Shown here: positions 2,234-41,418 of the stretch, in pieces
Layout of the letters: the number at the start of each line of letters is the position of its first letter
Position numbering within the stretch: position 1 is the stretch's first letter
IMG/VR virus record: IMGVR_UViG_3300037755_001058
Location: 27,854 to 91,853 of that record
Strand: one strand, 5' to 3'
From: a virus
DNA: 64,000 nt
Made by a program: the position numbers and the translations under genes
Notes under the pieces: model-generated
Seen by the model: only the letters and a program-made list of their open reading frames with translations
Told to the model about the DNA's origin: nothing
The model's database searches: none

Positions 2234-3013
2234 TTGAACGTTCAGGCCTGCGCCCCAAATGGTATCGATCTCGTCGACCTGCCTTCGGACCCTCAGGCCG
2301 ATATGATCTCTCGCCAGAGGCGCTTCCAGGCTCGGGTATACGGAGAAGCCAAGCTGGCAGAGTTGCGCGATTTCGGCTCATCACGGCGCTGTGACGTACG
2401 GGCCGTGTTGCATCACCTAGACATGGGTGGTCAGGAGTGCTCCGAGGCCTGGGACATGGTCGAGGGTGGATGGAAACACCACAAGACCAATCCGCACGAT
2501 CCTGACAAGCTCGAACTCATGATGGAGCTCGTCGATATCATGTGTTTCGCGCTGAACACGTACATCTACATGGGGGGTCAGCCTGAATCGGAACTCGTGG
2601 CGGCGGCCGTTGCCAGGAGCAAGGAACAGATGCGATACCCGAAGATTGGCCTCGACGAGGCATGGGTCATCGGGGCATCGAGCTGGGAGAGGAACGGCCC
2701 GAAGATGCGAGCCCTGTACGATCATGGCCGCGGTAGCCATGGGCGGGAGTGGACCAAGGAAGCCGCGACGCGCATCAACTTCCTCAGGGCACAGTTCTTC
2801 GACTCAGCAGCAACCATCAGGTACGGTCTGTCGAGGATGACCAAGGCCGAGCGCGAGACGTTTCCGCCGGCGTCCGGTTATGTCTACATCCAACTCGTTC
2901 CGTGGATCTGCGGTGCGGTTCAGGCGATCCCTGGAATGGGACTACAGGACCTGTACTCTGCCTTCGTGAAGAAGGACCAGATCAACAATGAGAGGCAAGA
3001 TGCAGGCTATTAG
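2234..3013 (+). CDS. Dimeric all-alpha dUTPase/dCTPase (dUTPase_2 / T4 gp56-like NTP pyrophosphatase)
   Basis: ECSEAWD...WKHHK, ELVDIMCF and terminal KKDQINNERQDAGY motifs; GGAGG before the TTG start. Confidence 0.8.
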   Translation: MNVQACAPNGIDLVDLPSDPQADMISRQRRFQARVYGEAKLAELRDFGSSRRCDVRAVLHHLDMGGQECSEAWDMVEGGWKHHKTNPHDPDKLELMMELVDIMCFALNTYIYMGGQPESELVAAAVARSKEQMRYPKIGLDEAWVIGASSWERNGPKMRALYDHGRGSHGREWTKEAATRINFLRAQFFDSAATIRYGLSRMTKAERETFPPASGYVYIQLVPWICGAVQAIPGMGLQDLYSAFVKKDQINNERQDAGY

Positions 3014-4211
3014 CCTGGGGTACCAATCGCATCCGTTGGACGACCAGTTCTCTGCGATCACGGTTCGTTTGAACGAGGCGTCCGATGAGCACACAGCTCT
3101 CGGGACATGCATCTTCGCCGGAGGATTTTCCTTCGGAATGGAAGAGGCCGGGTTCACGGTGGCCGGTCATCTCGAACTTCCGGACCTGGCCCTCGGGTCT
3201 CACACCTCCAAGCAGAGGTGGCCGGTTGCCGTAGCCAGTCTCGATCTATGGAAGGAGTACATCGATCAGCTGCGGGATAAGGACATCGTTCCAGATGTAT
3301 TCTACGCCAATCCACCTTGCGTTGCTTACGCCGGTACTGGGAAGCACGATGGAACGATGGATAGTCGTATGTGCTATACCAGGTACTGCGCGTACGATGC
3401 AGCCATGAGACTTCAGCCTGACGTCTGGATGTGGGAGCTGGTCGACGGAGTCATGCGAGACCGAGGATTTCTCGATGCGATGGCGTTCCGAGCGAAGTCC
3501 CTCGGGTACAGGTGCTACGCATTCCTTACATCATCGGCTATCCATGGTGGATACCAGGACAGGCGTAGATTCCACTTCGTTGCTAGCCGGTTCGAGCTAG
3601 ACTTCGAGGATGTGTGGGCCAACGAGCCCGTTCCTCGTAGGACCGTGCACACCCTCTCAGAGGCGTTGGCGTCGGTGCCTGCAGGTTCTACCAACCACGA
3701 GACCGTGTATAGGGGAGCATTCCGATCGATCTTCCCGTTCTGCCCCCCGGGAATGCACCTTCGGGATGTGTCTGATGATGTCATGCGTGAGCACTACCGT
3801 CCACGTGGTACTGCGTGGACAGGCACGGGGAGACCTGGGTTCTCACACACGCGTGCGAGGATGGACCGGCCATCCCCTAATGTCCTCGGAGGCCATACGA
3901 TAATCCACCCCATCGAGAACAGGTACCTCACACCTCGTGAGTGCGCCGCTATCATGGGGTTTCCCCATGACTACGCCTTCAGCCACGGTGCTATGGCGTA
4001 CGCTGAGATAGGCAGGGGGTTGTGCACCCACAACGCCGCGTTCCTGGGGAGGGTAGTCAAGAACGCTCTTGAGAGGCGCGTGCGTACGGTGCCGACCAGG
4101 GTTGACGACTCCTGGATGACAGTGGTAGACTGGCGCCGGAGGGCCAAGCCCCTTCGGCTGAAGATGACCGAAGCCGAAATCGAGGCTTGGTGGAGTGAGC
4201 GAGTTTCGTAA
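3000..4211 (+). CDS. C5-cytosine DNA methyltransferase homolog with atypical cofactor-binding motifs (candidate carboxymethyltransferase)
   Basis: Motif IV PPC (Cys at 3318), motif VI WELV, motif VIII QDRRRF, motif IX RYLTPRECAAIMGFP, motif X YAEIGRGL; start could be 2988 or 3000. Confidence 0.85.
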   Translation: MQAISLGYQSHPLDDQFSAITVRLNEASDEHTALGTCIFAGGFSFGMEEAGFTVAGHLELPDLALGSHTSKQRWPVAVASLDLWKEYIDQLRDKDIVPDVFYANPPCVAYAGTGKHDGTMDSRMCYTRYCAYDAAMRLQPDVWMWELVDGVMRDRGFLDAMAFRAKSLGYRCYAFLTSSAIHGGYQDRRRFHFVASRFELDFEDVWANEPVPRRTVHTLSEALASVPAGSTNHETVYRGAFRSIFPFCPPGMHLRDVSDDVMREHYRPRGTAWTGTGRPGFSHTRARMDRPSPNVLGGHTIIHPIENRYLTPRECAAIMGFPHDYAFSHGAMAYAEIGRGLCTHNAAFLGRVVKNALERRVRTVPTRVDDSWMTVVDWRRRAKPLRLKMTEAEIEAWWSERVS

Positions 4212-8230: not shown

Positions 8231-8304
8231 TCCCGAATTGAGCGGAGCTACGAGACTTGATGCAACCTACCATGAGTGTTATAACTCTTGTGGGAGGAGC
8301 AAGG

Positions 8305-9252
8305 ATGGAAGGATTGATCTGTCTACGAACTGGACAGCTCCGCAGAGGTTCTGACGGACAGTCAGAGCCAGTCGATCCCGATGGAATCGAGCACATGTGG
8401 GTGCCCATCATCGAGGGTGAGCCAATGTTCGTTCAGAACGTGGGCTCTACCTCTAACCCGCACGACCGAACCGACGATGGAAGGTTCGACAGATCGCACC
8501 TCTCCCCAGAGAGGGCATACAGGATCGGTCGCGATTACTTGGCGCACTGTATTCGGTACGGTTTCCCGATGAAGGTGATCAAGGAGCACTTCGGGGCTGG
8601 GGTTCGCATCCTGGAGATGGGGTGCGGGAAGGAGATCCCGTTGTTCAGGACGCTCACCTGCGACCATTCCGCCACGAAGTACTACAAGCCGAGTCAGTAC
8701 TGCGGAGTCGACCTGAATCCCATCAAGTACCATCCTCGAGTGACAGGCATCGAGAGCAAGGTTCTCTCGCGCGTCAACTGCGTGACCGAACCGGAGAAGG
8801 TGCCAGATTGGACGTTCGATCTGGTCTTGTCCTTCGAGGTCGTCGAGCACATGGACAAGCCCGACGGTGACAGGTTCCTCGATGCCATGGTGACCTTCGC
8901 CAAGCGCAAGGTCGATCGTGAGGGCAAGCCAGGAATGATCCTCCTGTCGACACCCGTGAACAACGGAACCATCGCCAAGAACCACATCTACGAGTGGCGG
9001 CGCTCGGAGCTGGAACGAGCCTGGACCAGGCGTGGGTGCAGAGTGCTCGAGCAGTACGGTACGTTCAGCAACCTCAGGGACCTGTTCGCGGCTATGGACG
9101 ACACCGAGATCGAGGTGTGGAATCGCATGGCGGCCTACCACAGTCCGAACACGCTGTCATGCGTGTTCAGCGCCATGCATCCTGAGGCCGCTAGGAACGT
9201 GGCCTGGAAGATCGAGGTTGGTGAGGATTCACACCCTCTGGATGGACGATGA
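8305..9252 (+). CDS. Class I SAM-dependent methyltransferase
   Basis: HCIRYGF, ILEMGCG, GVDL, FDLVLSFEVVEHM, ILLSTP..NHIYE; GGAGG upstream of ATG 8305. Confidence 0.85.
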   Translation: MEGLICLRTGQLRRGSDGQSEPVDPDGIEHMWVPIIEGEPMFVQNVGSTSNPHDRTDDGRFDRSHLSPERAYRIGRDYLAHCIRYGFPMKVIKEHFGAGVRILEMGCGKEIPLFRTLTCDHSATKYYKPSQYCGVDLNPIKYHPRVTGIESKVLSRVNCVTEPEKVPDWTFDLVLSFEVVEHMDKPDGDRFLDAMVTFAKRKVDREGKPGMILLSTPVNNGTIAKNHIYEWRRSELERAWTRRGCRVLEQYGTFSNLRDLFAAMDDTEIEVWNRMAAYHSPNTLSCVFSAMHPEAARNVAWKIEVGEDSHPLDGR

Positions 9253-9464
9253 GCAAAGGTACGACGTGTCTGGCGTGCCGGCACTGTTTCATGGAGCCGG
9301 ACGATGACTTCTGCTGCGGGCATCCAGATGCCGGAGAGGTGGGGACGTACGTCAAACGCGCAGCGGTGGAGGGGGGACACTGCGGCCCAGAGCGGCCGAA
9401 GTTCGAGCAGCACCCGCTCCGCACCGCCGACGGCTACATGAAGCCGATCGAGCGTACCACATGA
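9249..9464 (+). CDS. Small Cys-rich (possible Zn-binding) hypothetical protein
   Basis: CLACRHC...CC...C; ATGA overlaps with both neighbouring genes. Confidence 0.65.
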   Translation: MSKGTTCLACRHCFMEPDDDFCCGHPDAGEVGTYVKRAAVEGGHCGPERPKFEQHPLRTADGYMKPIERTT

Positions 9465-9880
9465 ATTACTACCTCGCAACCAAGCTCGAACGTGCCGAAG
9501 AAGCACGCGCAGTGCACTTCAACCTGGTTTCTCTCGATGTAGGCTTCAAGTGTACCTACGACTGGACAACCCATGGTTCGGTCAAGAACACCTCCAGGAT
9601 CCGTCTGGCAGAGGTTGGACTGAACGAGACCAAGGGTGTCCTCAGTGCTGACGTGGTGATCGTTCTTCTTCCTGGAGGGCGAGGCACCCACGCCGAGCTC
9701 GGAATCGCGATCGGCGCTGGCAAACGAGTGATCCTTCATTCGAAGACCGGCAATGAGTTCGAGGTCAACGACGGGACCTGTGCGTTCTACTGGCAGCCGC
9801 TGTGCGAGAGGGTCGTGGGAGACCTAACCGCGCTCGTCAAGTACCTCGCCGAGCCGGCCGTCGGGATGATCGTCAGGTGA
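9461..9880 (+). CDS. Nucleoside 2-deoxyribosyltransferase-like / (d)NMP N-glycosidase (DNPH1/MilB fold)
   Basis: YYLA, YDWT, GVLSADVVIVLLPGGRGTHAELGIAIGAGKRV (catalytic Glu motif GT.aElG.A). Confidence 0.75.
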   Translation: MNYYLATKLERAEEARAVHFNLVSLDVGFKCTYDWTTHGSVKNTSRIRLAEVGLNETKGVLSADVVIVLLPGGRGTHAELGIAIGAGKRVILHSKTGNEFEVNDGTCAFYWQPLCERVVGDLTALVKYLAEPAVGMIVR

Positions 9881-10758
9881 ACCCAGTCATCATCATCGAG
9901 GGTCCGGACGGGGTGGGCAAGACCACCCTGTGCGATGCCCTCGCACAGAGGTTTTTGGGCTCGTGTACGATTGTTCATTCCGTTCACTATGGCCCACCAC
10001 CCGGTGATGAACCAACCGCCCTGTACTACTGGGACGAGGTGGACAACATCCTGGGCCTGGCGAAGTCCGGTCCAGTGATCGTCGACAGATTCCATGTTGG
10101 TGAGATGGTCTACGGCCCGATCCTCCGGGGTGATGCTGGGATGAGCCTCGACGAGGCTTGTGTCATCGACATGCGACTGCAGGCCATCGGCGCCATGATG
10201 TGTCATTGTAGGCTATCATCCACAGACCTATCGTCCAGATTGCTGTCCAGGGACGGCGGCCTTCCGGATTCTGCTAGCGGCGCCGCGCTGGGCCACAGCG
10301 AAGCCGTTCGGGCAGCGTTCTTTGGGATGACCAACGGAGTGCTTCCGTCGTCTTGGGAGCAGCTCGATATGACCTGGTACCCAGCACAGCTGGTTCCACT
10401 GGTGGCGCTGTCGTCGATCTCCCTGAGCACATTCGGTGCGGAGGTTGGGGTCATCGGCAATGTCAGGTCTCCACAAGTGCTCATCAAGGTGCCGAACTCT
10501 GACATGGATACCCTCTCGAGGGTAGTTCGAGGTTTGAGGTTGGCGGGGATGGTACGGGTCTCTGCCATCGAATATGATGACACCGATCTGAACTACACAA
10601 CCGTATCTCGATCAGTAGCCATGGGGTTGTCACTGCATCGTACCCTCATGGAAAGGGGGTTCAAGCTCCCGTCTGTCGTGTCCACCGACGCGACTCCGGA
10701 AGATATCGCCGAGGCAGTACGAACCGCCGTGGTGGCACAGCCCAGTCCGGAAGGATAG
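9877..10758 (+). CDS. dNMP/thymidylate-kinase-like P-loop kinase with an extra C-terminal domain
   Basis: IIIEGPDGVGKTT and VIVDRFHVGEMVYGPILRG; GTG 9877 overlaps the upstream stop. Confidence 0.8.
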   Translation: MNPVIIIEGPDGVGKTTLCDALAQRFLGSCTIVHSVHYGPPPGDEPTALYYWDEVDNILGLAKSGPVIVDRFHVGEMVYGPILRGDAGMSLDEACVIDMRLQAIGAMMCHCRLSSTDLSSRLLSRDGGLPDSASGAALGHSEAVRAAFFGMTNGVLPSSWEQLDMTWYPAQLVPLVALSSISLSTFGAEVGVIGNVRSPQVLIKVPNSDMDTLSRVVRGLRLAGMVRVSAIEYDDTDLNYTTVSRSVAMGLSLHRTLMERGFKLPSVVSTDATPEDIAEAVRTAVVAQPSPEG

Positions 10759-10778
10759 ACACATGGGTGAGGTGAACG

Positions 10779-11033
10779 ATGAAGTTCAACGAGACGGCCA
10801 TCAAGGCGCTCCCGGAGCGAAACCAGAGAACGATCATGAACCTCCTCAAGGAGTTGGAGGTCTCCCCGGAGCGGGGGACCTTCGTGATCAGTCGGGAGAT
10901 CCTCGACCGGATGACCCCCCGGCAGCTCAGGACGCTCAGGCTGATGCGGCGCGTCCACGACGCGATGGACGTTCCGGTGGTGACACGAGGCCGTTCATCA
11001 ATCAAGCGGAAGGAGTCGACCGCGACGGAGTGA
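10779..11033 (+). CDS. Hypothetical protein
   Basis: GAGGTG SD; host-like codon usage; TGATG coupling to the next gene. Confidence 0.65.
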   Translation: MKFNETAIKALPERNQRTIMNLLKELEVSPERGTFVISREILDRMTPRQLRTLRLMRRVHDAMDVPVVTRGRSSIKRKESTATE

Positions 11034-11989
11034 TGTCATTCGGCTCGATGGATGAGCTCTTCAGGTTCGCCGTCTGGAAGTGCATCGAGCATGGACGGAT
11101 GACCAAGCCGAGGGGCTTTTCGGTTCTGGAGATCGCCACTCCCACCGTGCTCACCTTGCGGGACGTCCACAGGCCGTTCATCCACTCGCCTCTGCGACGG
11201 CCCAACTACCGATTCGGCCTGGTAGAGGCCGCATGGATCGCAGCCGGATCCGATCGTCTGGCCCACCTTTCCGCCGTGAACTCGCGGATGGCACGGTTCA
11301 GCGATGATGACTCCACGATGTGGGGTGGGTATGGGCCGCGCGTGATCGGTCAACTCGACCATGTCATCGAGACACTGCGGCGGGACAACGACAGTCGCCA
11401 GGCGGTCGTGACGACATGGCGACCCATGGTTCCACCGGTGGTGGGCAAGTCTCAAGGCCCGATTCGATCGGCTGGCCTGATGGCCACAGGTTCTGAGACG
11501 GTCAGTCCTACATGGGATGGCTACTCCTGGCGATCAAAGGACGTCCCGTGCACCGTAGCATGGCACTTCCAGTTGCGGAACGGCGGACTGGCTCTGACCG
11601 TATTCATGCGGTCTAACGACGTGTGGCTGGGGTTGCCGTACGACGTGCTGAGCTTCACCACCATCCAGCGTGTGGTTGCTTCTGCACTTGGTGTGAGACT
11701 CGGTGCGTACCACCATGTGGTCAGCAACCTTCATCTGTACCAGAAGAACTACGAGGCTGCTGTCAGTCTCATGGGGGAGACCGTCTCCAACGAGACTGTG
11801 GTGATGCCACCATTCGATGACCTGTTCCTCGGTGGCAGTAGTGATTCGATGTCGACGATCTTCAACACGACTCTCAACGGCTCTCTCATCTTGATGTCCA
11901 AGCCCGGGATGCAGCCGTTCATCTCGGCGGTGATTGGATCCGATGAATGGGACGACTTCCGAAAGCTCATGGCTGCTAACGGAAGGTGA
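11033..11989 (+). CDS. Thymidylate-synthase-fold pyrimidine C5 transferase, predicted dCMP-specific (hydroxymethylase/methylase)
   Basis: FSDD...YGPR, DSRQAV, KDVPC (catalytic Cys), MRSNDVWLGLPYD (Asp at the E. coli ThyA N177 position), NLHLY. Confidence 0.85.
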   Translation: MSFGSMDELFRFAVWKCIEHGRMTKPRGFSVLEIATPTVLTLRDVHRPFIHSPLRRPNYRFGLVEAAWIAAGSDRLAHLSAVNSRMARFSDDDSTMWGGYGPRVIGQLDHVIETLRRDNDSRQAVVTTWRPMVPPVVGKSQGPIRSAGLMATGSETVSPTWDGYSWRSKDVPCTVAWHFQLRNGGLALTVFMRSNDVWLGLPYDVLSFTTIQRVVASALGVRLGAYHHVVSNLHLYQKNYEAAVSLMGETVSNETVVMPPFDDLFLGGSSDSMSTIFNTTLNGSLILMSKPGMQPFISAVIGSDEWDDFRKLMAANGR

Positions 11990-15180: not shown

Positions 15181-15653
15181 TGGACAGCCCACCAGACCTT
15201 AGGGTGCTGTTGGTGGAGCTCGCCCGGGAGCTCAATCGGATTCGTCCTGAATCCGTTCTGGGTGCGGAGCTGGAGCGAGTATCCACGGCCAAGAACACGT
15301 TGTTAGTGCTCAGTCGTGTTCTAACGGCCATGGCCGTTCGGGCCGGCGTATCGAAGGATGCGGTTGACAGGGCCGTGGCCAAGGCCCGTCGGGCTAACGA
15401 ACCCAAGCAGGGTGACATGTTCGTTCCTGTTGTGGTCAGCCCGGTTGCTGAGACGTTGACGACTACCACGGATTGGTACATCATCGCTGAGGTTGACCTG
15501 GTGCTTCTCAAGCACCGAACGGAACTTCCAGACTGGTTCGTTAACGATTTCTGGCCAGGCTGCATACGGCGCGCGGCTCAGGGCCTGAGGTTGACTGATC
15601 GAGAGCGAGCAATTGCCGAGTACCAAGCCAGTAAGGCCAGGGGGGAACGGTGA
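15177..15653 (+). CDS. Hypothetical protein
   Basis: Fills the gap between neighbours with ATGA/GTGA overlaps. Confidence 0.6.
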   Translation: MMDSPPDLRVLLVELARELNRIRPESVLGAELERVSTAKNTLLVLSRVLTAMAVRAGVSKDAVDRAVAKARRANEPKQGDMFVPVVVSPVAETLTTTTDWYIIAEVDLVLLKHRTELPDWFVNDFWPGCIRRAAQGLRLTDRERAIAEYQASKARGER

Positions 15654-16114
15654 TGAGGCCATCTTGGGACGAGTACTTCATGCACATGGCGGTGATGATC
15701 TCCACCAGATCGACGTGTGACCGTCGCAGGGTGGGGTGCGTACTGGTGTCGCCTCAGTGGAATGTGGTGAGCACCGGGTACAATGGCTCGGCTCCTGGAA
15801 CTGAACACTGTGACGATACGGGTCACATCATGCACGATGGGCACTGCGTTCGTACCATCCATGCCGAACGCAACGCCATCGCCCATGCTGCCAAGCGCGG
15901 AGTGGCTACCGACAGGACTACGGCGTACATCACCACGATGCCGTGTCCCACGTGCATCACCGATCTTGTTGCAGCAGGGATCAAGTCGGTGGTCTTCCTA
16001 GAAGGCTACCACGACGAGGAGGATCAGGTCACTCGTCGCTTGGCCGCGGCGAGCGGTGTCGTGCTGTACGAATACGACGGGAGAAAGACATGGGAAAGTC
16101 CGATCGACCGGTGA
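15650..16114 (+). CDS. dCMP deaminase (ComEB-like)
   Basis: RPSWDEYFM, RSTC.RR.VG, TGYNG, HAERNA, PCPTC. Confidence 0.93.
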   Translation: MMRPSWDEYFMHMAVMISTRSTCDRRRVGCVLVSPQWNVVSTGYNGSAPGTEHCDDTGHIMHDGHCVRTIHAERNAIAHAAKRGVATDRTTAYITTMPCPTCITDLVAAGIKSVVFLEGYHDEEDQVTRRLAAASGVVLYEYDGRKTWESPIDR

Positions 16115-27063: not shown

Positions 27064-29254
27064 CAGGCCCAGCGACGTCAGGTGGCCACCGTCGAACGAC
27101 ATCTCGTTCGATTCCATCTTCGACCGCCTCATCGATCTCAAGGTGCAGCACTTTCCAGAGCACACCGTCCGTGACATTGCCGATCCGTACGTACAAATCA
27201 TGGCTTTGACTGCAGCTCTTGGGCAACACGCGTTCGGGCGAGCGAACCACGCCCTGAAGCAGCTCGCCCCGAAGACTGCCACATCACGCCGTGCACTCGT
27301 CTCGCTACTGGAGATCGTCAACCGACCGCTCGCACCGATACAACCCGCCCGAGGGAAGGTGTACGCTCGGCTGAAGGCAGCCTCCGTGGCTGACACGGTC
27401 ATGATCGAAGAGGGTCAACGCATCGCGCCGACCAACACCGTCGACCCTGTGTTCACGATTGATAGCGATGTGTCCATCGGTTCTGTGGCCGGGATCTCGA
27501 CATGGTCAGTTCTAGCAGGATCGGTCACCCTGGAGTCCGTGTACCCGGCTACGTTGTCCGCCATGGAGGTGGACGACTACATCATCTTTGGGTCTGACGG
27601 CTCATTCTTCGATGAACTGACGATCGACGTTGGAACTACCGCGCTTCCAGCGATCACAGCATCGTGGGAGTACTACAACGACGAGACCGGTGAGGTGACA
27701 TCTGCATCGATCGTGGGATCTAACCTCGAGTTCGACATCAGCGACTACCTGAACGGATCGGTCCCTGAGGGGTTGGAGGTGACTATCACCCACACCCCTA
27801 CGAACGTATCGGAGACCGTTGACACGGCCTCGGGTGTCGCGACCACATCGTTCCTCGGCCAATCATCTCCAAGCGAATCGGCAACGGACTACTCGGTCTT
27901 CGCCGAATGGAGACCCGTTCCTGGAGTCACCGATGGCACGGTTGGGATGACCCAGGACGGAGTGGTATCTTGGGACGTGACCGGAGTCAAGGATTCCGAT
28001 AACGACTGGGTGCCCCATGACACGTACGGGTTTGCAGTCAGGATGCGCATTGCTGACGACCCGTCCGTACTCCTGCCCTCGGACCTTGATCTCGACTCGG
28101 CTCCAGACAATCCCGATGGGGATTGGTTCGTCGAGGGGTACATCACCCAAGGTGTGCGAAGGACGATTTCGCTCGGACAGACGGATGGGTCTGCATTTCA
28201 AGCCCTTCCGATCAGTTCGGTGTTGATCGACGAGCCGGTGGCCGATCCAATGTGGGAAATCTCGATCGGTACAGAGACCGATTGGGCCGTGGTGGCAGAC
28301 TTCAGCAACTCCGGCCCTGCATCGAAGCACGCAGTCCTCAAGGAGGACCCTGACGACGGCTGGACGGTCGTACTCGGCAACGGTACGGTCGGCGTGCTGC
28401 CAACCTCGGGGCTCGGAGTGTCCGTCACGATCCGAACCGACTCACAGAGTCCAGGGGATCTCGATCCCAACGCCGGGATCAGAGCTCTCAGTGGTTTGGG
28501 TCTGGTGACAGGTTTCGTTCTGTTCCGCGGAACCACAGGATTTGCCGAGGCCGAGGCGTCTGATGCGAATGCCGTGATGGAATTTCGAAACAGCATCCTG
28601 CCTCAGCTTGCCCTCAGGGCAGAGAGTGCCATCACAGCACCAGAGATCGTCACAGCCCTCACTGGTGGAGCACCAAACAGAGCCACGTTCACTACCGCAG
28701 ATGGAAGGACGCCATTCAGTCGAGCCCTCTTCTCCCTGGAAGGCGCTGGTGATCGTCAGTACCGAGTGATGGTCGTGGGCGCTGAGTCTGACCCGTACGG
28801 TACGGTTGACTCGAACGATCTGGATGAGGCGGAGACCTGGTTGAACGGAACCCCCGTGGGGGTAGAGATCGTCGGCGGGCACGGGCCGAACAATACCGAG
28901 GCGATCGTTGGTTCATTCGTCTCCAGGCCCATGCGTCCAACCATCGTCCTCACGGTGAAATCGGCCCAGGGTGTACTGGCTCAAGCTGACCAAATTGTGC
29001 GGCAGTTCTTCAAGCCGCATAGCAAGGATGAAGATCTCGTCTACCGTTGGTCGTTCGGAGGGAAGGTGCCCGTGCCCATCCTATTCGGCCTCTTATGGGA
29101 AGGAGTTCCCAACAGGACATTTCTGACGCTCACCGTCAGTGATGGGGTCCTCGCCTACACGGCTGGCGACAGCATTCAGCTCGAGTCGTTCGAACTGCCC
29201 ACACTTGATCCGGCCTACAGCGCAGCGGCAGACATCTCCATCGTGGTGGGATGA
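27056..29254 (+). CDS. Baseplate wedge protein (gpJ/T4 gp6-like)
   Basis: DSIF..L...FPE.T..DIADP, LAPKTATSRRAL..L, VLGNGTVGVLP, GFAEAE. Confidence 0.75.
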   Translation: MADRPSDVRWPPSNDISFDSIFDRLIDLKVQHFPEHTVRDIADPYVQIMALTAALGQHAFGRANHALKQLAPKTATSRRALVSLLEIVNRPLAPIQPARGKVYARLKAASVADTVMIEEGQRIAPTNTVDPVFTIDSDVSIGSVAGISTWSVLAGSVTLESVYPATLSAMEVDDYIIFGSDGSFFDELTIDVGTTALPAITASWEYYNDETGEVTSASIVGSNLEFDISDYLNGSVPEGLEVTITHTPTNVSETVDTASGVATTSFLGQSSPSESATDYSVFAEWRPVPGVTDGTVGMTQDGVVSWDVTGVKDSDNDWVPHDTYGFAVRMRIADDPSVLLPSDLDLDSAPDNPDGDWFVEGYITQGVRRTISLGQTDGSAFQALPISSVLIDEPVADPMWEISIGTETDWAVVADFSNSGPASKHAVLKEDPDDGWTVVLGNGTVGVLPTSGLGVSVTIRTDSQSPGDLDPNAGIRALSGLGLVTGFVLFRGTTGFAEAEASDANAVMEFRNSILPQLALRAESAITAPEIVTALTGGAPNRATFTTADGRTPFSRALFSLEGAGDRQYRVMVVGAESDPYGTVDSNDLDEAETWLNGTPVGVEIVGGHGPNNTEAIVGSFVSRPMRPTIVLTVKSAQGVLAQADQIVRQFFKPHSKDEDLVYRWSFGGKVPVPILFGLLWEGVPNRTFLTLTVSDGVLAYTAGDSIQLESFELPTLDPAYSAAADISIVVG

Positions 29255-39981: not shown

Positions 39982-41418
39982 ATGCCTACCGCAGACGACT
40001 ACCTGACCACGGTTGGACAGGCCACCGTGGTCCAAGGCCTTCCTGAGGAGGCCGTGGCGATGCTGTTCGGGATGTTCTCCCGAAATCCCAGAAATCTGCG
40101 GGACACCCTGCAGACGATGATCGATGATGGCGACATCGATCCTCCTCCGTTCGACTCCAAGGACATGACGGACCGTGTGCGTTCGTTCCACGAGAGGATC
40201 ACCATCGGGTATGGCCACAAGAGCGTGGCAGACCACGCGATGGTCCACTTCTGTTTGGAAGGCGTCTCGGCACTGGCCGAGCGCGACTTCTTGTCCGCCC
40301 GACTCCTGGCCGCTTCTTCGAAGTCCACGAGGTTCGTAGACTTCAGCAACGTAGGTTGGGTGACTCCAGAAGAGATCAACGACCAAGACCTGAGATTCGA
40401 GTACGATGATCACTGCCTCGACATGATGAGGGCGTACGAGTATCTCGTCCCTCGTGCTGTCGACGCCGTACGCGAAGTCTGTCCGTACGTTTCAGAGGAA
40501 TGGAACGGCAAGGAGAAGCTCTGGGAGGGGGCTACCCACAAGCGAGCCTTGGACTCGGTACGAGACGTACTTCCGATGTCTGCGCGCACGAACTTCGCCG
40601 TGACCATGAGTGCCACTGGCCTGAGAGAGATGCTGGACAAGCGCCAGTCCGATCTCACCACGGCGTACGAGATCAGAGAGGCCGCGGACAGCATCAGACT
40701 GGCGTCCAAGGCCGCTGTACCTACACTTCTCCCCGATGAGACCAGGATTATCCGTCGACAGCCCATGATCGCGGCAAGCTGGACTAGGGCGCGCATCCAC
40801 GCACCGATGACCGTACGGATGGTTACGCGTCCAGACTGGAGTTCCGTGGAGACCATCCTGGGTGAGTCGATCCAGCGCGCCATCCATCGGTGGACCAACG
40901 ATCGCACCCAGTACATGGTTCCCGACCGTACGGCTGAGGCAGCGACGTACGCTTTCATCATCAACATGCCGATCGCCATCCATAGAGACCTTGGACGACA
41001 CCGTCCGCTGACCCAACTGCAGACGCTGCTCGGACCTGGGCTCGGATACGGCGTGGACCCCCTCCTCATCGATCAACAGGCGATTCAGTCGAGCCCGAAG
41101 CTCGTCGAACTCTCCCTGGAGCATGCAAAGATTCTCCAGGAGATCGATGAACGCCTCATGGGATTCATGTCACGGATGAATCCAACTGCACTGCAGTACG
41201 CCTGCCCGCTTGCAACCATGGTCCGCGTCGCATGGGTGGTCAACCTGAGGGAGTTGGTGCACATCCTTGGACTGCGCACCGTGAAGCAGGGACACGCCGG
41301 ATACCGTCTTCTCGTGCAGATGGTCGCCAAGGCGGTGAAGGCTCACGATCCCATGATCGCTCCGCTGGTTGACTCCGTCACCAACTTCGACCAGATCATC
41401 GTGGGTCGACCGGGTTAG
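39982..41418 (+). CDS. thyX: FAD-dependent thymidylate synthase, tandem two-domain type
   Basis: GYGHKSVADHA, SKSTRFVDF, RDLGRHR, NLREL.H.LGLRT..QGH.GYR. Confidence 0.85.
   Translation: MPTADDYLTTVGQATVVQGLPEEAVAMLFGMFSRNPRNLRDTLQTMIDDGDIDPPPFDSKDMTDRVRSFHERITIGYGHKSVADHAMVHFCLEGVSALAERDFLSARLLAASSKSTRFVDFSNVGWVTPEEINDQDLRFEYDDHCLDMMRAYEYLVPRAVDAVREVCPYVSEEWNGKEKLWEGATHKRALDSVRDVLPMSARTNFAVTMSATGLREMLDKRQSDLTTAYEIREAADSIRLASKAAVPTLLPDETRIIRRQPMIAASWTRARIHAPMTVRMVTRPDWSSVETILGESIQRAIHRWTNDRTQYMVPDRTAEAATYAFIINMPIAIHRDLGRHRPLTQLQTLLGPGLGYGVDPLLIDQQAIQSSPKLVELSLEHAKILQEIDERLMGFMSRMNPTALQYACPLATMVRVAWVVNLRELVHILGLRTVKQGHAGYRLLVQMVAKAVKAHDPMIAPLVDSVTNFDQIIVGRPG

Follow-up and report, generated by a model that had tools for sequence, protein, structure and literature searches.

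A predicted deoxycytidylate 5-hydroxymethyltransferase of the thymidylate synthase family, linked to methyltransferase-like genes in a phage contig

Replacement of cytosine in phage DNA by enzymes that hydroxymethylate dCMP is already known, and thymidylate synthase (TS) homologs carrying Asp at position 177 are an established marker of phages whose cytosine is modified. The meaning of the diagnostic active-site positions, given here in E. coli ThyA numbering (143/146/147/165/169/177), was drawn from PMC13326640, PMC6400193 and PMC8670742. In T4 dCMP hydroxymethylase (dCH), the conservative substitution D145N, at the position equivalent to 143, abolishes 5hm-dCMP production (PMC6400193), which points to this Asp as the determinant of hydroxymethylation. 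Replacement of Leu143 by Asp or Glu correlates with hydroxymethyl products (PMC13326640), a rule that is correlative only. In PaMx74, a phage with a natural dCMP methylase, the residue at this position is Asn and not a bulky hydrophobic one. T4-type enzymes also conserve a Ser or Thr, Ser94 in T4, which holds the catalytic water and is essential (PMC6400193). In the CMP 5-hydroxymethylase MilA, the double mutation A176S/K133R leads to loss of CMP activity. Finally, the MetaGPA study (eLife 2021, PMC8670742) reports that positions 177 and 147 separate modified from unmodified contigs.

The window analyzed here is a stretch of 64,000 nucleotides (positions 27,854 to 91,853 of the IMG/VR record IMGVR_UViG_3300037755_001058), and its relevant features are listed in Table 1. 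The candidate enzyme, P0001, is encoded by the sole ThyA-fold gene of the 91.9-kb contig. Translation of its reading frame gives a protein that includes MRSNDVWLGLPYD; this translation, together with the DNA at the Asp204 codon, confirmed the ORF, the motif and the Asp codon that had been described in an earlier reading of the letters alone (hereafter, the sequence-only reading). The true gene could also have been a longer in-frame ORF of 408 aa that begins at 10763, but this candidate was rejected, its extra N-terminal stretch being of low complexity. Because this extension is not conserved, and because the overlapping 84-aa ORF is conserved upstream of the homolog in the closest relative, L011 (tblastn E 2e-5), the start at 11033 is, as judged from these comparisons, the correct one.

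Table 1. Features of the window that are discussed in the text (coordinates are positions in the window)
Feature	Coordinates	Strand	Evidence or remark
Dimeric dUTPase/dCTPase family protein, gp56-like	2234..3013	+	PF08761 E 1.4e-8
Divergent C5-MTase-like protein, conserved cassette member	2988..4211	+	PF00145 E 3.8e-19
Class I SAM-MTase, phage family linked to Asp177-type hydroxymethylases	8257..9252	+	PF13489 E 3.6e-8
Nucleoside 2-deoxyribosyltransferase (NDT)/DNPH1/MilB-like small protein	9461..9880	+	PF05014 E 7e-5, under family cut-off
P-loop dNMP kinase-like protein	9802..10758 (ORF limits; true start probably near 9877)	+	Thymidylate_kin, PHROG 761
84-aa ORF, other frame than P0001	10779..11033	+	Stop overlaps the hydroxymethylase ATG (TGATG)
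ThyA-fold deoxycytidylate 5-hydroxymethyltransferase candidate (P0001, 318 aa)	11033..11989	+	PF00303, MilA matches, T4 gp42-like signature
Lineage-specific insert of ~35 aa, residues ~133-167	11429..11533	+	Between DSRQAVVTTWRP strand and catalytic loop
Asp170-Val-Pro-Cys173-Thr174, catalytic nucleophile and acidic residue 3 before it	11540..11554	+	Alignment
Asp204 codon GAC, base-specificity residue aligned with E. coli ThyA Asn177	11642..11644	+	MAFFT alignment, DNA read
Family A DNA polymerase, directly downstream of P0001	12002..14389	+	PF00476 E 7e-27
dCMP deaminase family protein	15650..16114	+	HAE...PCxxC motif read in sequence
Tandem two-domain ThyX, 478 aa, presumed dTMP source	39982..41418	+	PF02511 E 2.5e-36

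P0001 matched PF00303 with an E value of 3.6e-18 and 66 bits (cut-off 24), which places it in the ThyA superfamily. Its best sequence match in the PDB was MilA (E 1.8e-24). When the AF2 model of P0001 (pLDDT 96.6) was searched with Foldseek, the top seven matches were all MilA, with TM scores of 0.68-0.75, and every match was either MilA or a TS. The nearest characterized enzymes share 22-27% identity with P0001, and our search of the literature found no assayed member of its own clade. The ~35-aa insert occurs only in the closest relatives, where its length varies, and was modeled with pLDDT values of 84-95.

Next, P0001 was aligned with E. coli ThyA (from NC_000913) using MAFFT. Asn177 was matched by Asp204, Cys146 by the nucleophile Cys173, and Asp169 by Asp196, and zero gaps fell between the Cys146 and Asn177 positions; the gap-free alignment claimed in the sequence-only reading thus holds. 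Asp170 occupies the position of E. coli Leu143 and T4 Asp145. The remainder of the ThyA catalytic set was also found, as Glu65 (E. coli Glu58), Tyr100 (Tyr94), Arg193 (Arg166), His234 (His207) and Tyr236 (Tyr209). At the six diagnostic positions, P0001 reads D-C-T-M-D-D, identical to T4 gp42, a 5hm-dCMP synthase. E. coli ThyA and RB69 td read L-C-H-Q-D-N, the 5m-dCMP synthase of PaMx74 reads N-C-P-L-D-D, the 5ho-dCMP synthase RB69 gp48 reads E-C-T-M-N-D, and the dUMP hydroxymethylases SPO1 gp29 and CBA120 read D-C-N-N-D-N. The combination D-C-T-D-D at 143/146/147/169/177 was common to all 250 homologs collected. Since each of these carries Asp at the Asn177 position, Asp204 is not a chance substitution, and a sequencing or lineage accident was ruled out.

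Two other sites bear on the sugar of the substrate and on the catalytic water. The residues that give MilA its preference for ribonucleotides, Lys133' and Ala176, correspond in P0001 to Arg122 (E. coli R126) and Ser194 (S167), the state found in every deoxy-specific enzyme. At the position of T4 Ser94, two residues before the catalytic-base Tyr, P0001 has Gly98, and Gly is also the family consensus; SPO1 and CBA120 have Ala, and MilA has Thr, as read from the PDB-search alignment. Gly98 and the correlative nature of the position-143 rule were both counted against the main reading. As judged from the alignment, Gly98 counts against membership in the T4 type, not against hydroxymethylase chemistry.

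In the phylogenetic tree, P0001 was placed inside a clade of 13 members with 99% support. This clade is nested in a large group, to which the SPO1 and CBA120 hydroxymethylases belong as well. Canonical TS and the PaMx74 enzyme lie apart from the clade, and T4 gp42 and RB69 gp48 fall outside it on very long branches. The dCMP hydroxymethylase signature may have multiple origins.

We consider it likely that P0001 is a 5hm-dCMP synthase, or deoxycytidylate 5-hydroxymethyltransferase, and that it belongs to the MilA/SPO1-like branch of the TS family. The fold, the residue signature, the neighborhood and the conservation are as observed above and below, and from them we infer the substrate, the product and the extent of cytosine replacement. 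The Asp at position 177, the identity with T4 gp42 at six sites and the deoxy-type Arg and Ser all support dCMP as the substrate, as had been proposed before. Because of the same residues, the product can likely be narrowed to 5hm-dCMP, rather than 5-methyl- or 5-hydroxy-dCMP. By analogy with T4 gp42 and MilA, Cys173 would attack C6 of dCMP, Asp204 would recognize and protonate the N3/N4 face of cytosine, and methylene-tetrahydrofolate would supply the one-carbon unit. Asp170 replaces the water-excluding Leu143, so that water, and not hydride, would quench the exocyclic methylene. The outcome would be 5-hydroxymethyl-dCMP, with tetrahydrofolate left unoxidized. Given that the active site matches that of the T4 5hm-dCMP enzyme, the phage probably substitutes cytosine in its own DNA.

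The neighboring genes could make up the rest of such a pathway. The gp56-like protein matched T4 gp56 dCTPase/dUTPase (BLASTP E 3e-6); a further matching segment (E 2e-4) covers the C-terminal NxERQDxGY end. The P-loop kinase is homologous to the kinases that phages DSL-LC01 and G encode beside their hydroxymethylase homologs; a dNMP kinase adjoins the hydroxymethylase in many loci, and the two are fused in P0121 and P0122. Homologs of the dCMP deaminase, whose gene lies ~3.7 kb downstream of P0001, are found near the hydroxymethylase in most related loci, mostly just downstream of it. The order kinase - hydroxymethylase - (deaminase) - PolA is conserved in DSL-LC01, MW202510 and dozens of IMG/VR contigs. 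In the proposed pathway, the gp56-like dCTPase/dUTPase would convert dCTP to dCMP, and P0001 would then convert dCMP to 5hm-dCMP. The adjacent kinase and the host NDP kinase would raise this product to the triphosphate, and the phage PolA would incorporate 5hm-dCTP in place of dC. dTMP would be made separately, by the dCMP deaminase and the tandem ThyX. The linked class I MTase, the C5-MTase-like protein, or both, would probably tailor 5hmC further, although this last step is speculative. In the contig, we found no DHFR, family 1 glycosyltransferase, TET gene or canonical ThyA, and no glycosyltransferase, arabinose gene or other sugar-nucleotide gene. A Pfam scan of 20 upstream ORFs outside the window revealed no enzymes of sugar, carbamoyl or amino-acid transfer. 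Since the contig is ~85% complete, the absence of DHFR and of glycosyltransferases is soft.

The sequence-only reading had held that the ThyA-fold enzyme is not redundant with a complete ThyX encoded at 39982. The signature and the neighborhood both support non-redundancy. The ThyX gene is indeed present, but the word "complete" needs qualifying, as the protein consists of two Thy1 domains in tandem, scoring 84 and 39 bits, with the motif split between them. The RHR triad is missing from the N-terminal half, which keeps the downstream Ser..Arg positions (SAR...S.R), while the C-terminal half has the RHR and lacks the Ser of RHRxxxxxxxS. Judged by this arrangement, activity as a pseudo-dimer is plausible.

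That P0001 is an ordinary TS, redundant with ThyX, is how databases and automatic annotation would have it, labeling all members "thymidylate synthase"; with the canonical Asn177, Leu143, His147 and Gln165 replaced by Asp, Asp, Thr and Met, and with scores far under the cut-offs of every curated NCBIfam TS equivalog model, this is almost certainly not the case. It is improbable that P0001 is a dCMP methyltransferase of the Xp12/PaMx74 type, which would form 5m-dCMP by reductive methylation and thereby 5mC in DNA, the linked deaminase possibly turning part of the 5m-dCTP pool into dTTP. Papers cited in PMC8670742 found that Asp at position 177 alone makes TS a dCMP methylase. In a preprint (10.1101/2024.12.05.627091), 5m-dCMP was the product of five of seven Asp177-type enzymes that have a deaminase linked in cis; a gene of the deaminase family is linked here too. 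However, where the PaMx74 enzyme has N at 143, P at 147 and L at 165, P0001 has D, T and M, in agreement with T4 gp42 at all three, and PaMx74 branches apart from the clade of P0001. Loss of 5hm-dCMP production in T4 dCH D145N also argues against a methylase. Moreover, DHFR adjoins the PaMx74 enzyme and was not found in this contig, and a separate ThyX makes the route from 5mC to T unnecessary.

Other rivals assign a different substrate or a different adduct. Both sequence and fold point to MilA as the closest solved structure, and the sole PDB match of the small NDT-like ORF is MilB, at a level that is not significant (E 0.6). P0001 could then be a MilA-like CMP hydroxymethylase that, with a MilB-like N-glycosidase, yields free 5-hydroxymethylcytosine or a nucleoside metabolite and no DNA precursor. 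This is very unlikely, given the Arg122/Ser194 pair at the ribo-preference sites and the lack of CMP activity in A176S/K133R MilA. In addition, the gene sits among replication genes, relatives have a dNMP kinase fusion, and no homolog of the NDT-like ORF was found in L011 or any other locus compared. Asp177 and an acidic residue at 143 are likewise common to P0001 and the flavin-dependent 5-hydroxy-dCMP synthases of the RB69 gp48/DLP3 gp80 type, but P0001 and 250 of 250 homologs keep the Asp equivalent to Asp169 (Asp196), a mark of the folate-dependent type, where the RB69 gp48 control shows Asn. As the D169N change is absent and the contig yielded neither glycosyltransferases nor genes for arabinose or other sugar nucleotides, an enzyme of this type is extremely unlikely. 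An undescribed C5 adduct of dCMP, formed with a nucleophile other than water or through transfer of the product to the linked MTases at the nucleotide level, would accommodate the private insert beside the catalytic loop, the lack of a T4 Ser94 equivalent and the tight linkage of two MTase-like families to P0001-type enzymes. Yet the active-site signature nowhere departs from that of known hydroxymethylases, and the insert is missing in close relatives that retain the same cassette, which leaves such an adduct distinctly improbable.

The sequence-only reading had pointed to a puzzle, namely that the predicted dCMP-modifying enzyme and the C5-MTase homolog target the same carbon. The puzzle proved real, but it is a conserved pattern and not unique to this phage. 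In IMG/VR loci gathered by an alignment-seeded scan, the C5-MTase-like clade adjoins an Asp177-type enzyme in 46/46 of those that extend far enough. The protein keeps the PPC motif with the catalytic Cys and the Glu of motif VI. On the cofactor side, PCQ is changed to PCV, ENV to ELV and the motif X GN to GR; in the clade, the Asn of motif X is replaced by Arg or Lys. Members of this group are sometimes fused to a glycosyltransferase; Pfam did not recognize the C-terminal parts of the fusions, and their look-alikes in the ESM Atlas were AGT-like and GT-B proteins, which are leads and not proof. A C5-MTase-like gene is odd if all cytosines are already substituted at C5.

The class I MTase matched the MTase of the MW202510 cassette (E 8e-26). 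A PDB sequence search with it returned nothing significant, and the structural matches of its AF2 model were all generic class I MTases that act on small molecules or RNA. An Asp177 ThyA-fold gene was found in 59 of the 80 IMG/VR loci of this MTase family. Among the loci compared, which come from related phages and were ascertained in three different ways, the family was never found together with the cassette glycosyltransferase.

The C5-MTase-like clade is almost always linked to Asp177-type enzymes, which speaks for sequential chemistry, or for a second mark within the same pathway, rather than for coincidence. We tentatively raise the possibility that 5hmC is the first step of an undescribed hypermodification. 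The class I MTase, holding the place of the GT-B glycosyltransferase of sister cassettes, would cap the 5-hydroxymethyl group, for example as 5-methoxymethylcytosine. The C5-MTase-like protein would act too, its target being 5hmC or the remaining C in DNA, by covalent C6 chemistry and with a cofactor other than plain SAM. A full-text literature search for 5-methoxymethylcytosine found no phage paper.

The predicted dCMP hydroxymethylase is itself a new member of a known enzyme type. Its recognition is useful for annotation, because every database entry of this large family is labeled "thymidylate synthase". The association extends further, as two MTase-like families accompany the predicted pre-replicative synthesis of 5hmC in phages that are very divergent. 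One of the two is the C5-MTase clade, with its remodeled cofactor pocket, and one occurs in alternation with a DNA glycosyltransferase. Should these proteins act on 5hmC, they would define natural DNA bases and a base-flipping chemistry that are both new, with a bearing on phage restriction escape and on enzymatic tools for epigenetic sequencing.

Among the known systems, the Asp177 "thymidylate synthases" of MetaGPA resemble P0001 in that it has their "modified" state at both 177 and 147. The linked tailoring enzyme characterized in that study is a 5hmC carbamoyltransferase, in contrast to the genes found here, and term searches of the paper returned no DNA cytosine methyltransferase. The Xp12/PaMx74 system shares with this contig Asp177, a linked dCMP-deaminase-family gene and an NTP pyrophosphohydrolase; it differs in the three residues given above and in lineage. 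PaMx74 carries DHFR and no ThyX, whereas ThyX and no DHFR were found in this contig. It served as the stand-in for the characterized lineage of dCMP methylases, and the published qPCR primer for phage Xp12 had no match in IMG/VR.

SPO1 gp29 and the Kuttervirus (CBA120/ViI-type) dUMP hydroxymethyltransferases belong to the same large group of the tree as P0001 and share with it Asp143 and the RQ pair at 126/127. In contrast to P0001, they keep Asn177 and have Asn at 147 and 165, and therefore use dUMP. MilA (Streptomyces rimofaciens; PDB 5b6d, 5jnh) is the closest solved structure, with a TM score of up to 0.75 that includes the C-terminal region, and has Asp at 143 and 177, as does P0001. It differs in its preference for ribo-CMP, set by Lys133' and Ala176, and in its role in antibiotic biosynthesis, whereas P0001 lies in a phage replication module. 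T4 gp42 has the same six diagnostic residues and the same ThyA fold, but its identity to P0001 is only ~22% over a partial alignment and it belongs to another clade. P0001 lacks the Ser94 equivalent and has a C-terminal helical extension and the 35-aa insert. The kinase here is of another family than T4 gp1, dTMP would come from ThyX and not from a ThyA-type td, and no glucosyltransferase was found, the genes present instead being those for the class I MTase and the C5-MTase-like protein. Nevertheless, the proposed pathway resembles that of T4 (gp56, gp1, cd, td), in which a gp56 homolog, a dedicated dNMP kinase and a dCMP deaminase are likewise joined by a separate thymidylate synthase.

The source contig is an IMG/VR virus sequence of 91,853 bp with an estimated completeness of 85%; the window is its final 64 kb and has a G+C content of about 60%. 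The candidate deoxycytidylate 5-hydroxymethyltransferase, P0001, is a ThyA-fold protein whose scores against the curated NCBIfam thymidylate synthase models fell far under the cut-off for every model. P0001 contains the motif MRSNDVWLGLPYD, and the sequence-only reading had aligned it without gaps to E. coli ThyA, with an Asp codon at the position of Asn177. This alignment was borne out: the codon reads GAC in the DNA, and alignments with E. coli ThyA (from NC_000913) and T4 gp42 (from NC_000866) left the Cys-to-Asp stretch ungapped. On E. coli numbering, Asp204, Cys173 and Asp196 of P0001 correspond to Asn177, Cys146 and Asp169. Since the upstream in-frame stretch is not conserved and an 84-aa ORF is conserved in another frame, 11033 is the correct start of the gene, whose ATG overlaps the TGA of that ORF. 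The in-frame extension to a start at 10763 was rejected; it is of low complexity and has no conserved counterpart. The insert of P0001 is confined to its closest relatives, varies in length, is missing in three close relatives, and ends in a conserved P-x-W-D-G-x-S-W-R-S-K-D.

Features discussed in the text (window positions, or positions within a comparison locus where an L-number is given)
Feature	Position	Strand	Remark
Dimeric dUTPase-family protein	2234-3013	+	PF08761
C5-MTase homolog	2988-4211	+	
Class I MTase	8257-9252	+	
NDT/DNPH1-like small ORF	9461-9880	+	
P-loop dNMP kinase	9802-10758	+	
84-aa ORF, other frame	10779-11033	+	counterpart conserved upstream of homolog in closest relative
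ThyA-fold protein P0001	11033-11989	+	318 aa; Pfam Thymidylat_synt, E 3.6e-18
Insert in P0001	11429-11533	+	~35 aa, residues ~133-167; precedes catalytic loop
GAC codon, Asp204	11642-11644	+	E. coli ThyA Asn177 position
PolA	starts 12002	+	downstream of P0001 gene
dCMP deaminase	15650-16114	+	
ThyX	39982-41418	+	478 aa, tandem of two Thy1 domains
206-aa ORF	L006:5162-5782	+	genome 19162-19782, upstream of window
PaMx74 thyA	L043:40496-41392	-	
C5-MTase-like fusion	L021:5876-8857	+	
C5-MTase-like fusion	L022:5838-8447	+	

Position 177 of these enzymes determines the base, Asn selecting dUMP and Asp selecting dCMP, and positions 177 and 147 best separate modified-cytosine from unmodified contigs in metaviromes (PMC8670742). 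Hydroxymethyl rather than methyl products go with an acidic residue at the position (Asp145 in T4, Leu143 in E. coli) that lies three residues ahead of the catalytic Cys (PMC6400193; PMC13326640). The T4 D145N variant makes no 5hm-dCMP (PMC6400193), and Asn169 is the mark of the flavin-dependent 5-hydroxy-dCMP synthases, which were described only recently (PMC13326640). The residue key was checked on enzymes of known product, with sequences taken from their genome records.

Residues at E. coli ThyA positions 143/146/147/165/169/177
Enzyme	Product	Residues
E. coli ThyA, RB69 td	dTMP	L-C-H-Q-D-N
T4 gp42	5hm-dCMP	D-C-T-M-D-D
RB69 gp48	5ho-dCMP	E-C-T-M-N-D
SPO1 gp29, CBA120 orf073	5hm-dUMP	D-C-N-N-D-N
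PaMx74 ThyA (Xp12-type)	5m-dCMP	N-C-P-L-D-D
P0001	predicted only	D-C-T-M-D-D

At all six signature positions P0001 was identical to T4 gp42, which supports the earlier proposal that the enzyme acts on dCMP. The residues of MilA that confer its ribo-CMP preference, Lys133' and Ala176, correspond to Arg122 and Ser194 in P0001, the deoxy state. One T4-type feature is missing: the T4 Ser94 position, Ser or Thr in the T4 type, is Gly98. Since the SPO1 and CBA120 hydroxymethylases likewise have no Ser/Thr there, Gly98 may be read as a clade difference rather than a loss of function. P0001 is most likely a dCMP 5-hydroxymethyltransferase; the searchable literature yielded no characterised enzyme from its own clade. 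Two database searches, the second of which matched 8,719 proteins at E ≤ 0.001, provided a set of 250 homologs. Placed in a single alignment with the E. coli and T4 reference proteins, 250/250 of them had D-C-T-D-D at positions 143/146/147/169/177. Thus, Asp177 is no accident but a fixed trait of the family, which is very large and mostly viral.

In the natural dCMP methylase lineage, represented by thyA of Pseudomonas phage PaMx74, the residue aligned with E. coli L143 is Asn instead of a bulky hydrophobic one. The rule in the literature that a hydrophobic residue at 143 means a methyl product is therefore not exact, and Pro147 looks like a better marker of this lineage. The ThyA-fold ORFs of two comparison loci, L096 and L101, combine the dUMP-hydroxymethylase-like Asn147 with Asp177, a mixed signature seen in no characterised enzyme.

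The AlphaFold2 model of P0001, built with 107 homologs, was confident (pLDDT 96.6, pTM 0.94). Its top seven PDB fold matches were all MilA (TM 0.68-0.75, the longer alignments near full length), followed by ordinary thymidylate synthases, and MilA was also the best PDB sequence match (E 1.8e-24). In a maximum-likelihood tree of 56 sequences, P0001 fell within a 13-member clade with 99% support, and the large group enclosing this clade also held the SPO1 and CBA120 dUMP hydroxymethylases. PaMx74 branched near the canonical enzymes; T4 gp42 and RB69 gp48 lay outside on very long branches, so that their placement is unsafe. From the fold matches and the tree, P0001 belongs to the MilA/SPO1-like hydroxymethylase branch; it would work like gp42, but orthology with gp42 is not demonstrable.

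The sequence-only reading had found it puzzling that a C5-MTase homolog accompanies an enzyme directed at the same carbon of dCMP. The pairing is real. The homolog still has the nucleophile of PPC, the Glu of motif VI, QxRxR of motif VIII, and motif IX. The Gln of PCQ is replaced by Val, the Asn of ENV by Leu and that of motif X by Arg, and the glycine loop is shortened; the same oddities occur in homologs adjoining hydroxymethylase genes at seven other loci. An IMG/VR search from this clade yielded 58 loci (L053-L110). A ThyA-fold ORF was present in 46, which is every locus extending far enough (46/46), as the other 12 all stop less than 1.5 kb beyond the C5-MTase-like gene. Asp177 was found in 45 of the 46 ORFs; the remaining one ends before that position. 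Across 61 distinct clade members, Cys and Glu were invariant (61/61), while the ENV Asn position held Ser (57/61) or Leu (3/61), the PCQ Gln position Ala (53/61), and the motif X Asn position Arg (48/61), Lys (6/61) or Gln (4/61). These loci and the shared oddities show that pairing a C5-MTase-like gene with a dCMP hydroxymethylase is a conserved feature of very divergent phages and no chance arrangement here. No account of the role of the remodelled clade was found in the searchable literature.

Most C5-MTase-like loci have, between the C5-MTase-like gene and the kinase, a gene for a ~340-aa protein of GT-B-like predicted fold, homologous to the 'glycosyltransferase' of phage DSL-LC01. Two contig pairs encode the C5-MTase-like domain and a glycosyltransferase in one ORF. 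As leads from ESM Atlas look-alikes, the C-terminus of the L021 fusion resembles T4 DNA alpha-glucosyltransferase and that of L022 a GT-B (GT4-like) fold; Pfam recognises neither C-terminal part.

The class I MTase of the window shares 27% identity (E 8e-26) with the MTase clustered with the hydroxymethylase gene of phage MW202510, and its family has at least 403 IMG/VR relatives. A ThyA-fold gene was present in 59 of the best 80 loci (L115-L194), in all 59 with Asp177. The link with the hydroxymethylase is strong but not obligate, because a subgroup has no ThyA-fold gene within 10 kb. Upstream genes were tallied at 92 different hydroxymethylase loci, all of them with 5 kb or more of sequence upstream: 46/92 had the class I MTase only, 26/92 a C5-MTase-like gene with a glycosyltransferase, 8/92, including the window and its closest relative, the class I MTase with a C5-MTase-like gene, 7/92 a C5-MTase-like gene only, 5/92 none of the three, and 0/92 the class I MTase with a glycosyltransferase, counts that serve as a lead and not a statistic, as the loci were ascertained three ways and the phages are related. 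The pattern of mutual exclusion points to the class I MTase and the glycosyltransferase as alternative caps for the same group. Inspection of the window MTase sequence revealed no DPPY-type DNA amino-MTase motif, and the only structures similar to its model are generic class I MTases that act on small molecules or RNA. The searchable literature gave no account of the role of the class I MTase accompanying Asp177 enzymes. Conserved motifs of the family are HRDYxAHxxRW, GCG, FEVxEHM, STP, NHIxE, GTF and RNxxW.

The neighbours of P0001 reproduce the logic of T4. The dUTPase-family protein is homologous to T4 gp56 dCTPase/dUTPase (E 3e-6), and a second aligned segment covers the NxERQDxGY stretch at the C-terminus. 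Homologs of the kinase are the 'thymidylate kinases' adjoining P0001 homologs in phages DSL-LC01 and G, and two database proteins, P0121 (643 aa) and P0122 (616 aa), join kinase and hydroxymethylase in a single chain, which supports a functional link between their counterparts in the window. DSL-LC01 and many IMG/VR contigs show the same gene order of kinase, enzyme, deaminase and PolA, as does MW202510, where the P0001 homolog carries the annotation 'pyrimidine hmase'. P0001 would feed 5hm-dCTP to the phage polymerase. The only PDB matches of the NDT/DNPH1-like ORF were to MilB, a CMP/hm-CMP hydrolase, with non-significant E-values; the closest relative has no counterpart of the ORF, and the pairing of MilA-like and MilB-like genes is curious. 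Upstream of the window, the 206-aa ORF has a weak match to HhH-GPD base-excision glycosylases (E 0.0036), and a G:T/U glycosylase-like gene also occurs in the MW202510 cluster.

The dTMP supply would be independent of P0001, through the deaminase and ThyX. The ThyX gene described earlier as complete is present, but its motif is divided between two Thy1 domains. The N-terminal half has SAR in place of the RHR triad and retains the downstream S.R, and the C-terminal half has RHR without the Ser; ThyX resembles a pseudo-dimer joined in one chain, whose halves carry complementary parts of the motif. In the contig, which is incomplete (~85%), there is no second ThyA-fold gene, DHFR, family-1 glycosyltransferase or TET/JBP gene. 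The absence of DHFR fits a hydroxymethylase together with ThyX, since neither yields dihydrofolate; PaMx74, in contrast, has a DHFR gene beside its methylase.
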